Part shown: piece after piece, positions 2,981-17,801 of the stretch
Layout: each line of letters starts with the position of its first letter
Numbering within the stretch: the stretch's first letter is position 1
DNA from: a virus
Direction: 5' to 3' (one strand)
IMG/VR virus record: IMGVR_UViG_2864926767_000001
DNA: 64,000 nt
Notes under the pieces: model-generated
What the model saw: only the letters and a program-made list of their open reading frames with translations
Databases searched by the model: none
Told to the model about the DNA's origin: nothing
Made by a program: the position numbers and the translations under genes

Positions 2981-3009
2981 AAAGAAGGCCGGCTTTGCCG
3001 GCTTTTTTG
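2981..3009 (+). terminator. Rho-independent terminator
   Basis: GCCGGC-TTT-GCCGGC hairpin followed by TTTTTT. Confidence 0.7.
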
Positions 3010-3097
3010 TTGCCGCAGCTACCAAGCACCTGGTATCCATCCGCATACTCGTTTAAAAGGGGCTACTGGCCCGGATGAATAGCAGGGAACCGACTCC

Positions 3098-4219
3098 ATG
3101 GCTGCCAAAGAAAACGAGACTGTCGACTACAAAGCTCTAGCCGAGCGCGTCCGGAATCTCCACGAGGAGTTTCCAGCCATGTTCACTGCTATGAGCGAGG
3201 TAACGATTGCCCGCCGCAAGGAGGTGCTCCAAGACATTGCAGATGCACTTGATGCAGGCGAGTTCCCGAACGCCAAATTTGCAGACTTCAAGTACACGAT
3301 GGCTGAGGTGCTGAGGCAATATTGGGCTTCCGGCCCATCAGACCCCAACTACAACAACAGGCCTGAGGCGCTCTACATGGCCAGGGCTGGCTGGAGCACG
3401 AACGGCTACTCTAGCGGGCCTTCTCTTCGGAAGAAGCTTGAGAAATTTGCAAAGCTCTACCCGGAAGAAGCCAAGCAACCCCATACCGCCCCTTACTACG
3501 ACATGCTGGCATTCACTGACCTGATGTTCTTGATCGGCACGAGGCTCAAAGAGACTGCGGTCAAGAAGGTGCAGAAGACCGAGGCCGAGCGCGAGGCTGA
3601 GGAGGTCTACGTGCAGCCCTACGTAAGCCCTGCCTCCCAGAAAAAGGTTCATGACGTCTTGGTGGCTCTGACGGAATCGAAGCGCGAGGAGATGGAAGAG
3701 GCTTACGCTTCAGGCTTCAGGAAAAGTCTTCAGAATGCCCTGGAGAAACAATACGAGCCGTACTTCAGGGCGAACCACCCCTACTACGCCCACATGATCA
3801 GCATGTTCGGGAAGAGTGTTGAGTACCCAGAACGTCGTGGCCGCTACTACTACGTTGCGCACCCAGACGCTGAGGCCATGATCACGAAGCATGCCCAGCA
3901 AGTTTCACAGCGGGTACAGGAAGTCTTCGTTGCAAAGAACCTGAACAAGCTGCGGGTGCCTATCGACGTGAAGGGCAATCTGAAGTCGGTTGAGCTGCTT
4001 GGCAACAACCTCAGAATGGATCGCCTTGAAGGGAAGCTCCGCGTCACTTTTGAGGACGGCTCCAGGTTCGATGTTCATAACCAACTGGTCTTTGTGACCA
4101 ATCAGAATGGAACTCATTTCTCACGATTCCCCCTGACTTATCACAACGTTATCGATAGCGCCGGGGCCCTCGTTGCTAAGAAACGCTCCGAAGAAGAGAT
4201 GGGCACACAACCCTTCTAA
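3098..4219 (+). CDS. Hypothetical protein (373 aa)
   Basis: Long ORF with coding-like codon usage, ending before a bidirectional terminator. Confidence 0.75.
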   Translation: MAAKENETVDYKALAERVRNLHEEFPAMFTAMSEVTIARRKEVLQDIADALDAGEFPNAKFADFKYTMAEVLRQYWASGPSDPNYNNRPEALYMARAGWSTNGYSSGPSLRKKLEKFAKLYPEEAKQPHTAPYYDMLAFTDLMFLIGTRLKETAVKKVQKTEAEREAEEVYVQPYVSPASQKKVHDVLVALTESKREEMEEAYASGFRKSLQNALEKQYEPYFRANHPYYAHMISMFGKSVEYPERRGRYYYVAHPDAEAMITKHAQQVSQRVQEVFVAKNLNKLRVPIDVKGNLKSVELLGNNLRMDRLEGKLRVTFEDGSRFDVHNQLVFVTNQNGTHFSRFPLTYHNVIDSAGALVAKKRSEEEMGTQPF

Positions 4220-10236: not shown

Positions 10237-11559
10237 TCAAAAGGCGGGAGTGGCCGGCTCGTATGCGGTCGCGGCCACCAGGGCCTTACCGCTGGGCTTC
10301 ACCGCCTCATCGAGCACATAGGTGCGGTTCAGATCGCGGTCGATCTCCAGCACGTTGCCGAGAGGTTTACCGAAGGTGTGGAAGGTGCTGAGCAGCGTGT
10401 CATTCTTGCTCTCGCCCTTACGCACGTCAGCGTTACGCATAGCGACTGGGGACACCAGGTAGGCGCTCTGCTGCTCGAAGTTCATGTACGGATAGGTGTG
10501 GAACAGTCGATCCACTCCGGACTTAAGCTGTTTGAGCTTGCCTGCCAGGTAGTCCTTCTGGAAGTTGGCATTTCCAACCGGGCCGCAGTTGGTGCGCTGC
10601 GTGGGGATGATCTCGGCTTTCATGCCGTTCCTGACCATGTAGGTGAACCAGGAAGCGTTCTTGGAGAGGAACTCATTCCAAGTCGCCTCCCCGTTGATCA
10701 CCCCACCACCGTTGGTGTAGTTGTACCTGGTGTTCAGGTTCTTGACGCAGGAAAGCTCGACAATACGAGTGCCCCTCTCCTCTCGGTAAGGGCGAATGAT
10801 TACGCCGCCATACATCCCGTCGAACATGTTGGAGTCGAGCAACTCGATGATCTGGCGCCTGGCGTTCGCCTGGTTGACCAAGTCCAGTTCCTCAATGCGC
10901 CGGTACTGGACATCCACACCGATGAACCAGTGTTTCTTGCCCATGGCCAGCAGCTCCCTGGTGAGGTCACTGACCTCCACCTGGATCTGGATCAACGGCA
11001 CCCCATTCACCGAAACCTGCTTGTCTGCGACGGCCTTGGTGACAATGGCGTTGAGCTTCTGCAGGCGAAGCTTTTTCGTGGCGTAGGCTGAATCTGCCGT
11101 CGGGAAGATCGTGTTGATCTCTAGGTAGCCCGTGCAGATCTTGGGCTTCTTCAGCTTGGGGTTGGTTTTCGACTTAAGCACCGACATCCAGGTGGCTTTG
11201 AGGACATTGTTGTCCTTGTCGATGAACTCGACCTGCTCGGCGACAAAGGCCCCGCCAGACACGGTGCCGGGGGCGTTGTCGTCCGTGGCGAAGCACGGAT
11301 TCTTCGCGCGGTCGTCATCATCAGCCAGGTCTTCAAGGCTGGGGACGGTCTTGTCAGCACGGTTCTTGGCTTCATCGATGAAGCGTTGCGGAACCTCAAG
11401 AGTCAGCTTGAACGGAGCGCCAGCCTGATCAACGCCCAGCATGACGCAATCCTGAGGGGTCTTCCCGATCTGGTAGCTGCGGGGGTAACCCACGAAACCA
11501 GTCGTCAGGCCCTGCTTCAAGGCTTCGATACTGCCAAGTGGCGGTTTCATGTCGAGCAC
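10237..11559 (-). CDS. Hypothetical protein, paralog of 36607..38487
   Basis: 440-aa ORF; its N-terminal ~110 aa aligns by eye with 36607..38487 (PRSY, PS...AKN.C.A...N, A.W..VL). Confidence 0.8.
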   Translation of the reverse strand: MLDMKPPLGSIEALKQGLTTGFVGYPRSYQIGKTPQDCVMLGVDQAGAPFKLTLEVPQRFIDEAKNRADKTVPSLEDLADDDDRAKNPCFATDDNAPGTVSGGAFVAEQVEFIDKDNNVLKATWMSVLKSKTNPKLKKPKICTGYLEINTIFPTADSAYATKKLRLQKLNAIVTKAVADKQVSVNGVPLIQIQVEVSDLTRELLAMGKKHWFIGVDVQYRRIEELDLVNQANARRQIIELLDSNMFDGMYGGVIIRPYREERGTRIVELSCVKNLNTRYNYTNGGGVINGEATWNEFLSKNASWFTYMVRNGMKAEIIPTQRTNCGPVGNANFQKDYLAGKLKQLKSGVDRLFHTYPYMNFEQQSAYLVSPVAMRNADVRKGESKNDTLLSTFHTFGKPLGNVLEIDRDLNRTYVLDEAVKPSGKALVAATAYEPATPAF

Positions 11560-11779: not shown

Positions 11780-14308
11780 TCAGTCCTCGGTACGAATGCG
11801 CGCCATACGCGCCAGCATCTGCTCTAGGGCATCGGAAACGCCCTCTGCAGTGAGTTTGTTCGGCTGAGGGTCTACCGGGTAGTTGATCGTCTCATCGATG
11901 ATCTCAAGCCCCCTGCGAGCCTCCTCCATGGCTTCCAGCTCACTACGGCCGGCTGCCTTCTCAATCTCAAGCAGTTGCTTGATCGGCATGGCACGGTCTT
12001 TCTGGTCTGCCGACAACACCTCGGGATAGACCTTGAAGCTCTCTTTCACCGAGTCGCTCATCAAGTCGCTGAGTGACTTGAAGACATCGTCCGCCTCGTC
12101 GAGGATCGATGTGTCGTACTCCTCATCATCCTCCTCGTGGAGGAATGGGAGGTTCCCGAGCACTGTGTCCATCTCCTGGTCATAGCGCTTGGCGGACGGC
12201 CTTGCCGGCGGCAAATCGTCATCCGAGTCGTCTTCCATGATGGGTGCCTGACGCGGCGCCGGGCGTACTGCCGGCGCTGCTGAGACCCCGTTCGCTCTGC
12301 CCTTCAGAGAGGCGACGAACTCATCGTCCAGCAGCTTTTCCTTGTGCTCCATCATGCCAAACGCGATCTTGGCCGCCATGTCTGGCTCCTGAGCCCTGGA
12401 CACAGCCACGTCGTAGGCGTTGAACAAGGCCTGCAGGTTCCTGTCCAGGTCGACGGGCTTGGATCGGCGGCTATCAGCCTGGCTGTCATCGAACAGCTTG
12501 GTGATGTTGTTCCTCGAATCACGGAGCGTTTTGACCATGTCTCGGCTTGGGCCGTTGACCATCAGCATCCGATTGATACGGTACTCAGGCGATTTCTCCG
12601 GGTCAGTGAAGTACAGGCTCACCCTGGCCAGCTTGTCGCCGAAGATGACGTGGGCCTGGCCTGGCTTCTGGTCAACCAGGTCGCGGACGTTGATCCGTTT
12701 TTTACGCTCGGACTTCGACTGGTTATTATCCGCATATCCAGGGAACATCCCTTTCGAAACCTCGTAACCAGCCGAACTTGCTGTTTCGGCTTCACCAGCA
12801 CGCTCGATTGCCAAGTCCAAAGTTTCTTTGGCATCTTCAAGTTTCATGAAGATTTTAATGTTGGTGTTTGCAACAATGGATTTGGCTTCTTTTTCATCTG
12901 AGCGCTGGAAGGATGGGAAGTCCTGGCCAGCGAAAACAACAGAAATACCAAGGCTTCGGGCCTGGGCCGCAACAACCGAGAAGCCCTTGACGCTGTAGTA
13001 GCCGTATTCATCAAGTATTAGCATGAAGGGTACGTCAGAGTTTGTCGGCTTAGCGTCGATTACTTCTGCGTGAGAACCTTCTACTTTTTCACCAAGTGCA
13101 GGTGCAAGTGCACTTCGAACACCGGCCACAACCAACTTTCCGAGACCTGCTAGTGCGTCCGGCTCTTTCTCGAGGGCCGGCAACATAACAAATAGGATTC
13201 GGCGATTGTAAACAAGGTCTTTGTAGTCCACCTCCCCTCTCGGTGCATTGAAGATGTGAGAGTAAGTTGCAGACAATTCTTGCAGCACCTCGGTTAGCTG
13301 CATTGTCAAATAGTTGTGTTGTTCGTAACACTTGGCGTTAAGTTCGCCTTGGCGTGCTTCTTTCTCCTGGTAACCAGGAAGTTCGAGGAGATACTTATTA
13401 AGAAGAGAGATATTTTTCTCTGGAATATCTGCGCGCTGAGTTAGGTCTAGAATCCTATCCAAAGGCATGTTGTCACGCAGTACACCAACGTCCAAGTTGA
13501 TCTCGCCAGTGTCTCTCAGATACACCAGGCAATCGAGCAAAGCCAGCAGCAGCGCGTTCGCGCGGCCTTTCCACATGTCGTCGCCGCCCCCGTCGCGCAT
13601 CAGCGATGCAACAAGGGACTGAATTTGTTTCGCAGGGCCTAGGGCAAACGGGTTAGTTGTGTTGGAAAGCCGCGAACCATCATTAATGCTCTTGTCTGTT
13701 TTGGAGCCTGTTAGATAGTTGATTACAAGTAGATCGTCCTCTCGACCAAGCCTTCTGACCATCGAGAAAACGAGGCCGAAGACGGTAGTATCCCCCTTCC
13801 CGTCTACATACATTACGCCAGACCCGAGAACCAGTGCCTGGTAGAAAAGAGATAGCAGGAAGCGGGTTTTCCCCGAGCCTGTCGAGCCAAATACCAGCAT
13901 ATGGGTACGAGCATCGTCGTTGCTCACCCAGAACGATTCGTTAGTTACCAGATCATTGCCGATCAGAATGATGCCGTCACCAATCGGAACGCTCTTGTAT
14001 TTGTCCTTTCCTTTCTTACCTTTCACGCGGACTTGTTTGGTCTCTAGTGGGTTGAAAGGATGGCGATGCGGGTACTTCCTGACGTGCCGCTTGGCGTACA
14101 GGTAGGCCATGAGCGCGACGAGAATGAATATGTCGCTAGAGGTGGCGTAAGGACTGAACGGAAGTACGAAAGCCATAAATCCAAGGAAGCAGACAACGAA
14201 GCCGCCGATCTCAGCAAAGAGGCTCCTGATTCTGTACTTCAGCGGCCTGATCTCACGCTGCAAAAGTGTGGGGTCGAGGTCAGCGTTTTTCGTTACGCCA
14301 TGTACCAT
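11780..14308 (-). CDS. dotL: Type IVB secretion coupling ATPase DotL/IcmO (TrbC-like)
   Basis: N-terminal LDPTLLQR as in IcmO, TM segments, RTHMLVFGSTGSGKT, YVDGKGD, ILDEYGYY, AQARSLG, FAGQD, ANTNIKIFMKLED. Confidence 0.92.
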   Translation of the reverse strand: MVHGVTKNADLDPTLLQREIRPLKYRIRSLFAEIGGFVVCFLGFMAFVLPFSPYATSSDIFILVALMAYLYAKRHVRKYPHRHPFNPLETKQVRVKGKKGKDKYKSVPIGDGIILIGNDLVTNESFWVSNDDARTHMLVFGSTGSGKTRFLLSLFYQALVLGSGVMYVDGKGDTTVFGLVFSMVRRLGREDDLLVINYLTGSKTDKSINDGSRLSNTTNPFALGPAKQIQSLVASLMRDGGGDDMWKGRANALLLALLDCLVYLRDTGEINLDVGVLRDNMPLDRILDLTQRADIPEKNISLLNKYLLELPGYQEKEARQGELNAKCYEQHNYLTMQLTEVLQELSATYSHIFNAPRGEVDYKDLVYNRRILFVMLPALEKEPDALAGLGKLVVAGVRSALAPALGEKVEGSHAEVIDAKPTNSDVPFMLILDEYGYYSVKGFSVVAAQARSLGISVVFAGQDFPSFQRSDEKEAKSIVANTNIKIFMKLEDAKETLDLAIERAGEAETASSAGYEVSKGMFPGYADNNQSKSERKKRINVRDLVDQKPGQAHVIFGDKLARVSLYFTDPEKSPEYRINRMLMVNGPSRDMVKTLRDSRNNITKLFDDSQADSRRSKPVDLDRNLQALFNAYDVAVSRAQEPDMAAKIAFGMMEHKEKLLDDEFVASLKGRANGVSAAPAVRPAPRQAPIMEDDSDDDLPPARPSAKRYDQEMDTVLGNLPFLHEEDDEEYDTSILDEADDVFKSLSDLMSDSVKESFKVYPEVLSADQKDRAMPIKQLLEIEKAAGRSELEAMEEARRGLEIIDETINYPVDPQPNKLTAEGVSDALEQMLARMARIRTED

Positions 14309-14346
14309 GTGTCACCGTTTCTTATTGTTCTTATTGGTGGCGCTAA

Positions 14347-14748
14347 TCAGTTTTTCGTGACCCAGCCAAATTCGTTGCACAAGAAGGCATGCTTCTCGTA
14401 GTACTTGATCGGAATCTCGGCGGAGAGGTCTTCCAGGTTGATCTCCGGGTACAGGGCCTTCAGGTAACGGCGCACGCGCGGCTCGGTTCGTTCGTCGCAA
14501 CGACCTTCAGCCAAGTGCTTGATCATCCTGTCCAAGACAAGCCAGTCCCTGACCATTTCTACGGTCAGCATCACGCCCTGCTCGGCAGCCTGCTGGTAAG
14601 CCATGGCCAGGGAAGCTTCCACCAGGCGAATCATGGCCAGCCTCCACCTGAACTCATCCAAAGGCGGTAGCCAGTCGCTGAAGGCCGCGATCACCTCGCC
14701 GAAGTGCCTCCGGACGAAAATGTCCTGGGTGAACGGTGGCGCTCTCAT
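14347..14748 (-). CDS. Stand-alone protein resembling the DotL all-alpha domain
   Basis: ATGA-coupled to dotM. W...L.V..VRD.L.LDR....YL..L....K.YE.H..L pattern is shared with DotL residues encoded at ~13295-13575. Confidence 0.7.
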   Translation of the reverse strand: MRAPPFTQDIFVRRHFGEVIAAFSDWLPPLDEFRWRLAMIRLVEASLAMAYQQAAEQGVMLTVEMVRDWLVLDRMIKHLAEGRCDERTEPRVRRYLKALYPEINLEDLSAEIPIKYYEKHAFLCNEFGWVTKN

Positions 14749-16088
14749 ATGCCCATCTCCCACATGTCGTCCGAGTGATCCTGGGTTTGCCCTTCCCTCG
14801 CCGTCAGACCCAGCGCAACGCGCAGCCCTTCAATCGCTTCGGTGGTCTCTGGGTAGGGCACTGCAAAGCCGCACTCGGTTTCAAGCAGCCAATGGGCCCA
14901 AGTGCCCGAGGACTCCGTATACGCCGTTTTCTTGCCCACGTTGCTGATGGCGTACCAGAGAGGCCTGTTACGACCTTTGAGCCAGCGCAGGATGAGAGGT
15001 GGCAGAGTGGCACCCTCCCGTGCGGCCTCCAGGAGCGTCATAAGGCCGGTCGACACGAAGGCATGCTTGGAGAGCTTCTCGTCGGCAACCACCTGCTGCA
15101 GCACCCCTTTGAGCGAAGGACTGGCACAAAGAGAGCGGGCAACCGAGTCCGTTGGGCGCCAATCAGACTTGGCATCCATCTGCTCCTTCACGAAAGCCAT
15201 GAGCTTGTCGGCCAGGGCCTTGTGAGAAATATCCTGAGTCTTGTAGCGGAATCGGCTGGGTTGTTTCTTACCTGCGCGGCGAGCCTTCTCGATCATGTAA
15301 GCCTGTTTCAGGTAATCCTGGACGTATGGAAGCACTTCATCACGCTTCACCAGGATCTTGTCGATCAGCAGGTCGGTGATGCGCTTGGCGTCTTCGTCGA
15401 GGTTGTTGTAGCCGGCGTACATGGGGCCGAGTTGACTGTCGAAAGCCTTGCGCGCCAGTTCTTCATCGAACGCACCGGTCTCCTGCACCCAGATTGGGCG
15501 ATTGAGGCGCTTATCCTTGAGTGCGGCATTGGCCAGGCCAACCGGAGGAACACAGGTGGCGAACTGGCGCTCACCCATAGCCATCGAGTACTCGTAGGTG
15601 TCCGGGTCGTCCGGGTAGAAGTCGAGGGGCGTCTTCTCGGGGTGCTTGCCGATGAAGTCTTTTACGTGCTTAAAGCCGGGCGCCATCTTCGGCAGGATGT
15701 TCTCCATGTTCCAGCCCGAGAACGCGATATCACCACCCTGGATGTGAAGCTTGAAGCCATAGAAGCAGATGATGAGCCCCGGCAGCCAGTTGAAGAAGCA
15801 GAGGTAGAGGTTGTCGAACTTGCTGATAATCTCAGCCGTGAGGATGTCCGGGTCTGAGGTGAGTAGGAAGCGCAGGCCGGCCTCGAAGTCGAAGCCGATC
15901 AGATGCTCCACCGAGTCCGGGATCAGGAAGGCGAAGAAACCCACCTCCAAGACGCGGAGCCACTTCCAGAAGGTCGCGTAAACCCAGAAGATCTGGCTCA
16001 GGCCCCAGATAGCCAGCAGAACGACGATGATCAGGATGATCCCGACGTTCTCCAGGTTTGAGTCCTGCCCACCACCACCTTTAGCCAT
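14745..16088 (-). CDS. dotM: Type IVB coupling-complex protein DotM/IcmP (TrbA-like)
   Basis: N-terminal TM helices; C-terminal KHAFVST..LLEAAR..LP....WLK...R.LWYA..NVG....E..G..AHW..E signature. Confidence 0.88.
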   Translation of the reverse strand: MAKGGGGQDSNLENVGIILIIVVLLAIWGLSQIFWVYATFWKWLRVLEVGFFAFLIPDSVEHLIGFDFEAGLRFLLTSDPDILTAEIISKFDNLYLCFFNWLPGLIICFYGFKLHIQGGDIAFSGWNMENILPKMAPGFKHVKDFIGKHPEKTPLDFYPDDPDTYEYSMAMGERQFATCVPPVGLANAALKDKRLNRPIWVQETGAFDEELARKAFDSQLGPMYAGYNNLDEDAKRITDLLIDKILVKRDEVLPYVQDYLKQAYMIEKARRAGKKQPSRFRYKTQDISHKALADKLMAFVKEQMDAKSDWRPTDSVARSLCASPSLKGVLQQVVADEKLSKHAFVSTGLMTLLEAAREGATLPPLILRWLKGRNRPLWYAISNVGKKTAYTESSGTWAHWLLETECGFAVPYPETTEAIEGLRVALGLTAREGQTQDHSDDMWEMGI

Positions 16089-16092
16089 TCAC

Positions 16093-16644
16093 CTAGTCCC
16101 CTGACTGCTGACGCAACCACGCCAGCGTGTTCGATTCGTCGTAGTCATCGACGTGTTGTTCTTCTTCTGGCCCGAACAGCGATCCCTCGCTCAAGGTCAC
16201 CGTGTTTTCGGGTACGACCGGCTCATTTACCTCGAAAATGCGGCCTTCAATCACACTTGCTTGTTCCATCGGAGTAATCGAAGCTTGTGAAGGCCTCTCC
16301 CAGCCCTTTCCTGGGCCTGTCTCAACTTTCTGCGGCTGCGCCACTGCTTTTGCTGTCGATGGCCTCGGTGGCGCTTCTGGAGGCCTTCCTGGCCCTACTT
16401 CACGTGCTGACTTCGGCTTCACCTTGCCCCTAAGGTCTTCCAGGCGCCTGAGATCCGGGTTTCGTGCCCGGATGAACGCTTCCTCACCGCCCTCCTGCCT
16501 TGCCATAACCCTGAAACCGATCAGGGCCATCTGCGCCAGCTCCATCGATTGCCGGGTGCGCCCTTCGATGCCTTCAAGATGGAGGATCAATTCCAGGTGC
16601 AGCGGGTCTTCGTCGTAGAGGTTTACAACCCTCCGGTGTCTCAT
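16093..16644 (-). CDS. Putative ParR/StbB-like adaptor
   Basis: ATGA-coupled directly downstream of parM; compact N-terminal beta-alpha-alpha-like segment, then a disordered acidic tail. Confidence 0.55.
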   Translation of the reverse strand: MRHRRVVNLYDEDPLHLELILHLEGIEGRTRQSMELAQMALIGFRVMARQEGGEEAFIRARNPDLRRLEDLRGKVKPKSAREVGPGRPPEAPPRPSTAKAVAQPQKVETGPGKGWERPSQASITPMEQASVIEGRIFEVNEPVVPENTVTLSEGSLFGPEEEQHVDDYDESNTLAWLRQQSGD

Positions 16645-17660
16645 GCCGCTACGCCACCCATCTTGTATTCCGCGAACTTCAGCATCCCCAGGGCGTTCTC
16701 GAAGACAGGGTCTTCGGCCATCACCTGGTTTCTGAACCACCCCTGCAGGTAACGCTCCAGGTACTGGCTGGTGCCGCCCAGGAATGTCACTTGCTCGATG
16801 TCATGCGACTTCTGCAGACACGACTTGATCGTCGAGCGGATCTTGTTCACCACAGCCTTGTTTGCCTCTTCGACCAAGGCGCGGACGTCATGGGTCTCAC
16901 CCCACAGGCGAATCAGACCAGTACGCAGGGCCTCATCGACCTGCTCGTCAGTTACCTCGATGCCTTCGAAGCGGTGGAATAGACGCTCTCGAATGTCCTT
17001 TACGATGTTGATCATCCCGATGTCTTCGGTCGTGGAGCGGTCACCGTCGAGCTCCCAGTCACGGATCACGGCGATGTCCAGCGTGCGGCCGCCGATATCG
17101 ATCAGGGCCATGCGGCGCTTCACGCGCTCCTTGTCGAAGTCCAGCTTTCCTGATGGCTGGCGAACCAGAATCTGGTTTACCCAGGCAGCGATGCCTTCGG
17201 ACATAACATCGTGCCGGGAAATAATTGGCGGGATATATCCATCAGCGCCGGCAACATCCCCTTTCATGAGGTTTTTGCGCTTCCTGGAAATTACCGCCTT
17301 ATTTGGCGTATTCCCTATGTAATAACGCTTCAGCGGAAGTCCGGATACACCATGAATTTCAACATTGCTGGGCAGGTCGAACTGGCGCAGTGCGTGGGCC
17401 ACGATGACCCTGTTCTGAGCGCTGAACGGATACTCGTCGTAAGCCGTGAACTCGGAGGTGCCGATGTCACCGACCGTGAAGGGCCCGTCCTCTGTGTTGT
17501 ACACCCAGTTGCCGCTGGTGGAGCCGCTGATGGAAATCTTGTTGAAGACACCGCTGGCCGCGCGCGACGGGATGACGAGCCTGGAACCATTCGAGAGTAC
17601 GATCTTTGTGTCGCGGTGGCCGTCATCAATACCAGCGAACAATACTTGTTTTTGTTCCAT
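16641..17660 (-). CDS. parM: Actin-like ParM/StbA plasmid segregation ATPase
   Basis: GIDDGHRDTK (phosphate 1), SGLP, SEGIAA, IDIGGRTLD (phosphate 2), FLGG (adenosine), PVFENALG. Confidence 0.9.
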   Translation of the reverse strand: MEQKQVLFAGIDDGHRDTKIVLSNGSRLVIPSRAASGVFNKISISGSTSGNWVYNTEDGPFTVGDIGTSEFTAYDEYPFSAQNRVIVAHALRQFDLPSNVEIHGVSGLPLKRYYIGNTPNKAVISRKRKNLMKGDVAGADGYIPPIISRHDVMSEGIAAWVNQILVRQPSGKLDFDKERVKRRMALIDIGGRTLDIAVIRDWELDGDRSTTEDIGMINIVKDIRERLFHRFEGIEVTDEQVDEALRTGLIRLWGETHDVRALVEEANKAVVNKIRSTIKSCLQKSHDIEQVTFLGGTSQYLERYLQGWFRNQVMAEDPVFENALGMLKFAEYKMGGVAA

Positions 17661-17801
17661 TGACAAACTCTCGAATAAATAAGTCAACGGAAAATATAAA
17701 TCAGCAAGAGTTTGCTTACAATAGAATAACTGCTTGTCGATCTTGTGCTTAGTTATATATTTGGCGTTATTGTGGTTCGCACTTATATTTATCTAGGCAT
17801 T

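Follow-up and report, generated by a model that had tools for sequence, protein, structure and literature searches.

The window analyzed here is a 64,000-nt stretch of DNA from the IMG/VR virus record IMGVR_UViG_2864926767_000001, and our subject is a short minus-strand gene within it, here called X, that lies between homologs of dotM and dotL. X occupies positions 14347..14748 (stop codon included), with its ATG at 14748 and its TGA at 14347-14349, and this open frame encodes 133 residues, exactly as placed in an earlier note made from the sequence alone. Upstream of it on the same strand, the dotM/icmP homolog (447 aa, 14745..16088) matches Pfam DotM_C at 3.5e-32 and NCBIfam DotM_IcmP_IVB at 7.7e-26, the latter below the equivalog cut-off of that model, and its product is 51-53% identical to the DotM proteins of sister megaplasmids. 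Downstream, across a 38-nt spacer (14309..14346, minus strand, read from the sequence), a dotL/icmO/trbC-type gene (11780..14308, minus strand) encodes an 842-residue type IVB coupling protein that matches DotL in PDB 6SZ9_A at E 1.2e-145 and aligns to L. pneumophila DotL/IcmO (PDB 6SZ9/7OVB) over residues 1-670. The same protein matches Pfam TraG-D_C and TrwB_AAD_bind, as well as NCBIfam TrbC_conju at 3e-103. Its own all-alpha domain (AAD) spans residues 224-345 (13274..13639, minus strand), with the motifs DMWKGRA, LPLDR, LPGY and YEQH.YL.MQL intact, and this is the segment that X resembles. Sequence comparisons and a structural model indicate that X is a divergent but real homolog of the DotL AAD.

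Residues 34-123 of X align without gaps to residues 245-334 of the neighboring DotL, with 22 identities over 90 positions; the BLOSUM62 score is +55, and no other offset along DotL does better than -26. When 500 shuffled sequences were each scored at their best over all offsets, the mean was -15.6 (SD 8.1) and the maximum 15, so that the X-DotL score stands about 8.7 SD above the shuffles. BLASTP of X against the neighboring DotL gives E 3e-4. The ungapped alignment claimed in the earlier note is therefore real. In the neighboring DotL, the matched segment is framed by Walker A (GSTGSGKT, residues ~143-150) and the Walker B region (~428-436), where the AAD is inserted, and it corresponds to residues 215-349 of L. 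pneumophila DotL. Two residues of X, Trp35 and Pro101, are invariant in a 16-sequence alignment of AAD segments, and X keeps the AAD core positions W35, L61, R67, L72, Y95-L96, P101, Y117, H120 and L123.

A more distant search led to a family of free-standing AAD proteins. Tblastn of X against 72,556 plasmids returned a single match, which was not dotL: a 300-residue hypothetical protein of pMPPla107 (WP_005741749.1) that is 32% identical to X over 116 aa (BLASTP E 1e-10) and that itself matches the DotL AAD (BLASTP E 2e-12). A relative of this protein is found on pBASL58 (WP_056799136.1), pPL1 has two in tandem, and several metagenome assemblies contain others; all of these ~300-residue proteins are annotated as "hypothetical protein" and belong to no Pfam family. 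The genes lie at L004:8620-9522 on pMPPla107, at L011:4821-5756 on pBASL58, and at L012:2032-2919 and 2983-3876 on pPL1. By hhalign, X matches this family with a probability of 96.4% (E 1.3e-9), and the family matches DotL with a probability of 99.7% (E 2.7e-26).

We weighed the explanation that the likeness between X and DotL arises by chance or composition, and that X is an open frame in GC-rich DNA and no gene at all. X has no match in Pfam or NCBIfam, phmmer of X against PDB sequences returned noise only, and the direct hhalign comparison of X with DotL reaches a probability of just 67% (E 5e-5). On the other side stand the shuffle statistics and the transitive link through the 300-residue family. 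Moreover, a nine-protein profile of that family, built with X left out and searched in six frames across the whole 7.58-Mb genome, gave exactly two matches: the DotL AAD (1.5e-26) and X (1.7e-7). The G+C content of X at the three codon positions (0.575/0.381/0.791) is that of a coding frame, with a third-position value like that of dotM (0.589/0.391/0.770).

The predicted fold bears on the same question. We modeled X with AlphaFold2 from an eight-row alignment and without templates, and obtained six helices and no strands, with a mean pLDDT of 79 (~90 in the core) and a pTM of 0.78. The model was compared with 48,161 representative PDB chains using VIA-align, a search that is independent of Foldseek. 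First in rank was DotL (7OVB_A, residues 208-349), with a Z of 9.5 and an rmsd of 3.5 over 119 of 133 residues, a score to be read with caution, since helical bundles can reach Z values below ~13 by chance. The AAD of H. pylori Cagbeta took ranks two and three (Z 7.2 and 7.0). Superposition on the DotL and TrwB AADs had been set beforehand as the test of the fold, and the predicted structure agrees with an AAD on DotL; the TrwB AAD (chain residues 185-290) reached only sixth place, level at Z 4.7 with unrelated chains, whose best score was 4.8. We base the fold assignment on the top three places being held by DotL and Cagbeta AADs, well clear of the rest, together with the sequence evidence. 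Foldseek found nothing in the PDB for the model at E <= 0.001, a point on the side of chance; in that search 6SZ9_A ranked fifth, yet had by far the best TM-score (0.55). The ESM Atlas held only a 95-residue form of X, with a poor model and no usable match. Given the genome profile search, the structure search and the shuffle statistics, we consider a chance resemblance highly improbable and, for practical purposes, refuted.

Several features set X apart from a complete coupling protein. Its 133 residues are entirely helical in the model, and no P-loop motif (neither Walker A nor Walker B) is present. The translation shows no hydrophobic N-terminal segment, and the model is a soluble bundle without a membrane anchor. 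Lacking an ATPase domain, an anchor and a C-terminal tail, X as predicted is not a coupling protein. Its calculated pI of 5.9 is mildly acidic, as in the AADs of its clade.

The origin of X was examined with a maximum-likelihood tree of AAD segments. X and the 300-residue family fall on one side of a branch with support 92/93, adjoining the DotL proteins of the megaplasmids (93/96). X as a recent tandem copy or sister of the AAD of its own DotL was rejected by the approximately unbiased (AU) test (p-AU 0.0175), and placements of X inside the 300-residue family or as sister to it are both compatible with the data (p-AU 0.115). From the tree placement and the AU rejection it follows that X is not a fresh duplication of the neighboring dotL. 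The earlier note had called X a free-standing copy of the DotL AAD: the AAD homology holds by sequence, profile and predicted fold, and the derivation from the adjacent gene does not. In sequence, X is nearest to the ~300-residue free-standing family. We propose that this family of the pMPPla107-type megaplasmids branched from a megaplasmid-type DotL AAD, that X would have descended from the family, and that in this plasmid its gene would then have lost everything but the bare domain and come to lie between dotM and dotL.

What such a domain might do is suggested by work on other coupling proteins. AADs are described as conferring relaxosome and substrate specificity (Whitaker 2015, as summarised in PMC7434980), and the isolated AAD of X. 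citri VirD4 binds the XVIPCD signals of effectors (PMC8740702). The AAD of Cagbeta binds the inhibitor CagZ, which blocks hexamer formation (PMC9886983). Isolated AADs are stable binding modules (PMC8740702, PMC9886983). The part assigned to the AAD in substrate and relaxosome recognition by the earlier note agrees with this literature (PMC7434980, PMC8740702). In the Legionella coupling complex, the regions of DotL that contact DotM include beta5-alpha4 and a stretch around alpha10 (PMC7280309). We infer that these are the two junctions between the AAD and the nucleotide-binding domain (NBD), an assignment that is ours and not stated in PMC7280309.

Our preferred reading, which we hold with moderate confidence, is that X is a soluble, stand-alone AAD of the DotL/IcmO type, derived from the free-standing family and embedded in the coupling-protein operon, that tunes recruitment to the coupling complex. 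X would offer a second, diverged AAD surface in the cytoplasm at roughly the level of DotM. Through protein-protein binding of the AAD type, it would capture a component of the relaxosome or substrate, or a surface of DotM or DotL, and this binding would tune recruitment to the DotL-DotM complex. The candidate role is thus that of a soluble modulator of the coupling complex, either adaptor or decoy, which we regard as plausible; its partners and the direction of its effect are presumed. We lean toward a modulator or competitor (decoy) over an essential adaptor, although some adaptor role is conceivable, for two reasons: sister plasmids lack X in this position and one of them, pMPPla107, reportedly conjugates efficiently, and an AAD without an anchor would keep its ligand at a distance from the membrane complex.

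A number of observations weigh against this reading. The distribution of X is very narrow: among 1.84 billion representative proteins, phmmer recovered nothing beyond the 97% cluster to which X belongs, a word-index protein search with X likewise returned only that cluster, and a six-frame search of 33 other species of the genus found no copy. The gene order ParM-like, hypothetical, DotM, slot, DotL, hypothetical, hypothetical is conserved among pMPPla107, pBASL58, the FeN3W plasmid and the Vibrio plasmids. The slot between dotM and dotL varies. In pMPPla107, pBASL58 and pMPCFBP13716 it holds an 88-106-residue ORF (L005:3656-3925, L006:3615-3935 and L021:7592-7858, respectively); these ORFs are related to one another and unrelated to the AAD. 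In the FeN3W plasmid and pPL1 the slot is empty, and in the Vibrio plasmids it holds an unrelated 65-residue ORF. The earlier note had asked for neighborhood conservation, and X is not conserved in this slot among the sister plasmids; its position there appears, from the available sequences, to be unique to this plasmid lineage. X is therefore dispensable for the transfer machine and no core part of the coupling complex. Further points of this kind concern the protein and its gene. X lacks the motifs GRA (after the Trp), PGY and MQ (after YEQHGYL) that are conserved in DotL AADs, a loss that could mean relaxed constraint, and its branch in the tree is very long, at 2.1 substitutions per site. 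The start codon is ambiguous, since the NCBI record calls a 95-residue protein (P0015, starting MIRLVE). Three soil metatranscriptome runs of one study contain contigs that match X at 100% identity and extend across both the dotM-X and the X-dotL junction; the depth of these contigs is low, they show neither strand nor level, and they may come from DNA carry-over, so that we do not count them as proof of expression.

The narrow distribution, the variable and often empty slot, and the long branch with its lost motifs are also what would be expected if X were an evolutionary leftover: a truncated gene fragment of the 300-residue type stranded in the dotM-dotL spacer, transcribed by read-through and without function. 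Against this, the 133-codon frame is intact and has coding-type G+C at the third codon position. The X start codon overlaps the dotM stop codon in an ATGA (14745..14748, minus strand, read from the sequence), preceded at 8 nt by a Shine-Dalgarno-like GGGAG (14757..14761, minus strand) that lies inside the last dotM codons. An ATGA of this kind is typical of translational coupling, and X is probably coupled to dotM in this way. The cut points of X are not random and fall on domain borders: residues 17-124 align to residues 127-236 of the 300-residue family, whose modeled helices span ~126-247. The core positions common to all AADs are retained, and the core folds confidently in the model. A second allele (P0004), 97% identical with 4 differences in 133 residues, keeps the full frame, and none of the sister plasmids is without a free-standing AAD-like frame. 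We therefore judge the leftover explanation quite unlikely, and X, by its sequence and its model, to be a real gene that is presumably expressed as a protein.

The alternative, shorter form of X (95 aa from Met39, 14347..14634, minus strand) has a GGAGG 6 nt upstream of its ATG. It would lack helix 1 and Trp35, a residue found in 16 of the 16 aligned AADs. Since the short form loses these elements and the family homology begins at residue 17, we prefer the 133-residue form starting at 14748 on the evidence of sequence and model. No promoter-like or terminator-like site was found around X, the X-dotL spacer included; the sole minus-strand promoter-like sites lie at 17721-17639, upstream of a ParM-like gene. 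X is most likely co-transcribed with dotM and dotL.

A different explanation holds that X is functional and unrelated to the coupling complex: X would do whatever the 300-residue proteins do, for example bind proteins in a general or chaperone-like way, and that it sits in the operon would be incidental. The 300-residue proteins are encoded away from the transfer genes, dotM and dotL, and in pMPPla107 and pBASL58 the gene lies just downstream of a gene for an MscS-type channel and near a ProQ/FinO gene. Such a location makes a function outside conjugation conceivable and counts against our preferred reading as well. The proteins carry ~120 N-terminal and ~50 C-terminal residues around the AAD that are absent from X and are modeled as beta-strands (46-90 and 251-288), and these strands weakly match beta-sandwiches of the CS/p23/small-heat-shock type (Z ~4.5-5). 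The divergence of X at the DotL-conserved motifs would fit this explanation too. On the opposite side, coupling proteins are the only other known source of the AAD fold. The model of a 300-residue protein (pLDDT 68) places the AAD at 120-248 and matches the DotL AAD at Z 11.3, Cagbeta at 8.0/7.8 and TrwB, in fourth place, at 6.4; DotL and Cagbeta AADs thus head the ranking for both models, although for X itself TrwB only ties with unrelated chains. In addition, the family co-occurs with a DotL-type system on every plasmid checked, and X, besides its apparent translational coupling to dotM, lies 38 nt from dotL. We regard a function unrelated to the coupling complex as rather unlikely.

Free-standing AADs are not limited to the 300-residue family. 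When an AAD profile was searched against five sister plasmids, each of them gave, besides DotL, between one and four other AAD-like open frames at other places; in this genome the same profile found only DotL and X. X looks like the sole free-standing AAD of this plasmid, relocated to the coupling-protein operon and pared down to the domain. In addition to DotL and the 300-residue type, each sister megaplasmid has other, more divergent AAD-like frames (268-412 aa), at 293719-294006 and 575757-575948 on pPL1 (W04), at 864479-864832 on the FeN3W plasmid (W01), at 799583-799909 on pBASL58 (W03) and at G034:C2 858263-858520. That a free-standing AAD-like frame is found on every megaplasmid of the family checked suggests a selected function. 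A profile search of genome contigs with the DotM alignment added only one close relative, pMPCFBP13716. In a set of 5.8 billion proteins, most of the short AAD matches are fragments of dotL genes, with flanking ATPase sequence present. A protein of another build, P0036 (224 aa, on 85 contigs, the longest 1.34 Mb, from a low-GC organism), joins a Glyoxalase_8-like N-terminal piece (Pfam 3.4e-10) to a DotL-type AAD that is 33-34% identical to the AADs of IcmO-like proteins on Xanthomonas plasmids.

Other candidates for relatives of X were examined and set aside. The 88-106-residue slot ORFs, which carry a motif LALSL.LG..P and have no Pfam match, were rejected as degenerate AADs at an hhalign probability below 1%. 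ORFs of 174-263 aa also lie between DotM-like and DotL-like genes at L018:1695-2486 (P. aeruginosa pPA15W-NR), L019:1705-2484 (Xanthomonas) and L016:4814-5338 (Piscirickettsia). Neither the 260-aa ORFs between IcmP-like and IcmO-like genes on MPF_I plasmids of P. aeruginosa and Xanthomonas nor the 174-aa Piscirickettsia ORF gave a significant BLASTP match to X. The position between dotM and dotL seems to be a recurrent place for accessory genes. JGI metagenome contigs scanned with X gave a single locus (L026:95-301), which shares the exact 11-residue string KALYPEINLED with X; we judge this a coincidence of pattern-based scanning. The product of that locus is presumably IscX-like, by its resemblance to E. 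coli IscX, and a putative NuoB-like frame follows it.

The window is part of a conjugative Pseudomonas megaplasmid of the pMPPla107 family (~1 Mb), as judged from low-G+C contigs, plasmid-borne housekeeping genes and DotL identities. Its contig is 450 kb long with 57.5% G+C, and the other large contigs of the same genome have 65-67%. Contigs below 61% G+C, mostly near 57.5% (G000 C1, C18, C32, C36, C40, C43, C49 and smaller ones), total ~1.01 Mb, which fits a megaplasmid of ~1 Mb beside a remaining host genome of ~6.6 Mb at 65-67% G+C. The window encodes plasmid-borne copies of FtsZ, SecA, NrdA, RecJ, RecQ and DnaE. Its DotL is 56-62% identical to that of four Pseudomonas megaplasmids of ~0.9-1.2 Mb (pMPPla107, pBASL58, P. 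silesiensis pPL1 and the FeN3W plasmid) and 48% identical to that of Vibrio plasmids of ~0.9 Mb. PLSDB types pMPPla107 and pBASL58 as MPF_I, and high conjugation rates have been reported for pMPPla107 (PMC6482414). A soil DNA metagenome and soil metatranscriptomes contain sequence identical to the stretch around X.

Three further minus-strand genes flank this group. Upstream of dotM, a gene for a 215-aa protein (16093-16740) and a ParM/StbA-like gene (16641-17687; Pfam ParM/ALP families) belong to the same co-directional block (16093..17687), and a gene for a 440-aa protein (10237-11559) is a conserved neighbor of dotL. Neither the 440-aa nor the 215-aa protein has a match among Pfam, NCBIfam or PDB sequences; they may be unrecognized partners in the coupling complex or in partition.

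A broader possibility, which we consider doubtful, is that free-standing AADs make up a general, as yet undescribed level of control over type IVB conjugation in giant plasmids, with X as its minimal, operon-embedded form. Soluble copies of the docking domain would act in trans, binding relaxosome or DotM surfaces, and would decide when, or which, DNA reaches the DotL hexamer; they might, for instance, shut off costly transfer or exclude the relaxosome of a co-resident plasmid. If so, a piece of the machine itself would serve as a natural dominant-negative or specificity switch. The AAD is thought to choose the cargo of conjugative coupling proteins, and to our knowledge all studies of it have dealt with either an internal domain or a laboratory-made fragment. 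On our preferred reading of X as a soluble modulator, the protein would be a ready-made tool for asking what an AAD binds and whether a soluble copy competes with the motor or assists it. It could also show how giant, costly plasmids regulate their own transfer, and decoy action by AAD copies, if real, would suggest a means of inhibiting conjugation.

Compared with the AAD of L. pneumophila DotL/IcmO (6SZ9, 7OVB; ~208-349), X has the same predicted fold and detectable homology. The two share a Trp after helix 1, L..V.RD...LDR, YL..LP and YE.H..L. In DotL, the AAD is inserted in the ATPase domain of a membrane-anchored protein of 783-842 aa, whereas X is the domain alone; X is ~24% identical to its own DotL and differs from DotL AADs at the GRA, PGY and MQ motifs. 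The ~300-residue proteins are its closest relatives and likewise have neither motor nor membrane anchor, but X lacks their flanks and is the only member found in a dotM-dotL operon. The AADs of TrwB (R388, residues 184-297), Cagbeta, VirD4 (A. tumefaciens and X. citri) and PcfC (pCF10) belong to the same fold class. The ligands of these VirD4-type AADs, isolated ones included, are relaxosome proteins, effector signals or the regulator CagZ (PMC7434980, PMC8740702, PMC9886983). Unlike X, all of them are internal domains of ATPases, and they have no detectable sequence similarity to it. We know of no VirD4-type AAD that has been described as a separate gene product, and a narrow search of the literature on the DotL all-alpha domain and on AAD paralogs found no description of a free-standing AAD protein.

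X also invites comparison with IcmS, IcmW, LvgA, DotN, DotY and DotZ of Legionella and with CagZ of H. pylori, which are likewise small soluble partners of coupling proteins. In our searches X had no sequence or fold match to any of these; of the chains in 7OVB and 6SZ9, the structure searches listed only chain A (DotL), and absence from such a list leaves room for a weak similarity to the adaptors. X resembles a part of the motor and not an adaptor fold. CagZ binds the AAD and blocks hexamer formation (PMC9886983), and by analogy X may work in a similar way. The AAD is a known domain; its stand-alone, operon-embedded minimal form, as represented by X, appears to be new.

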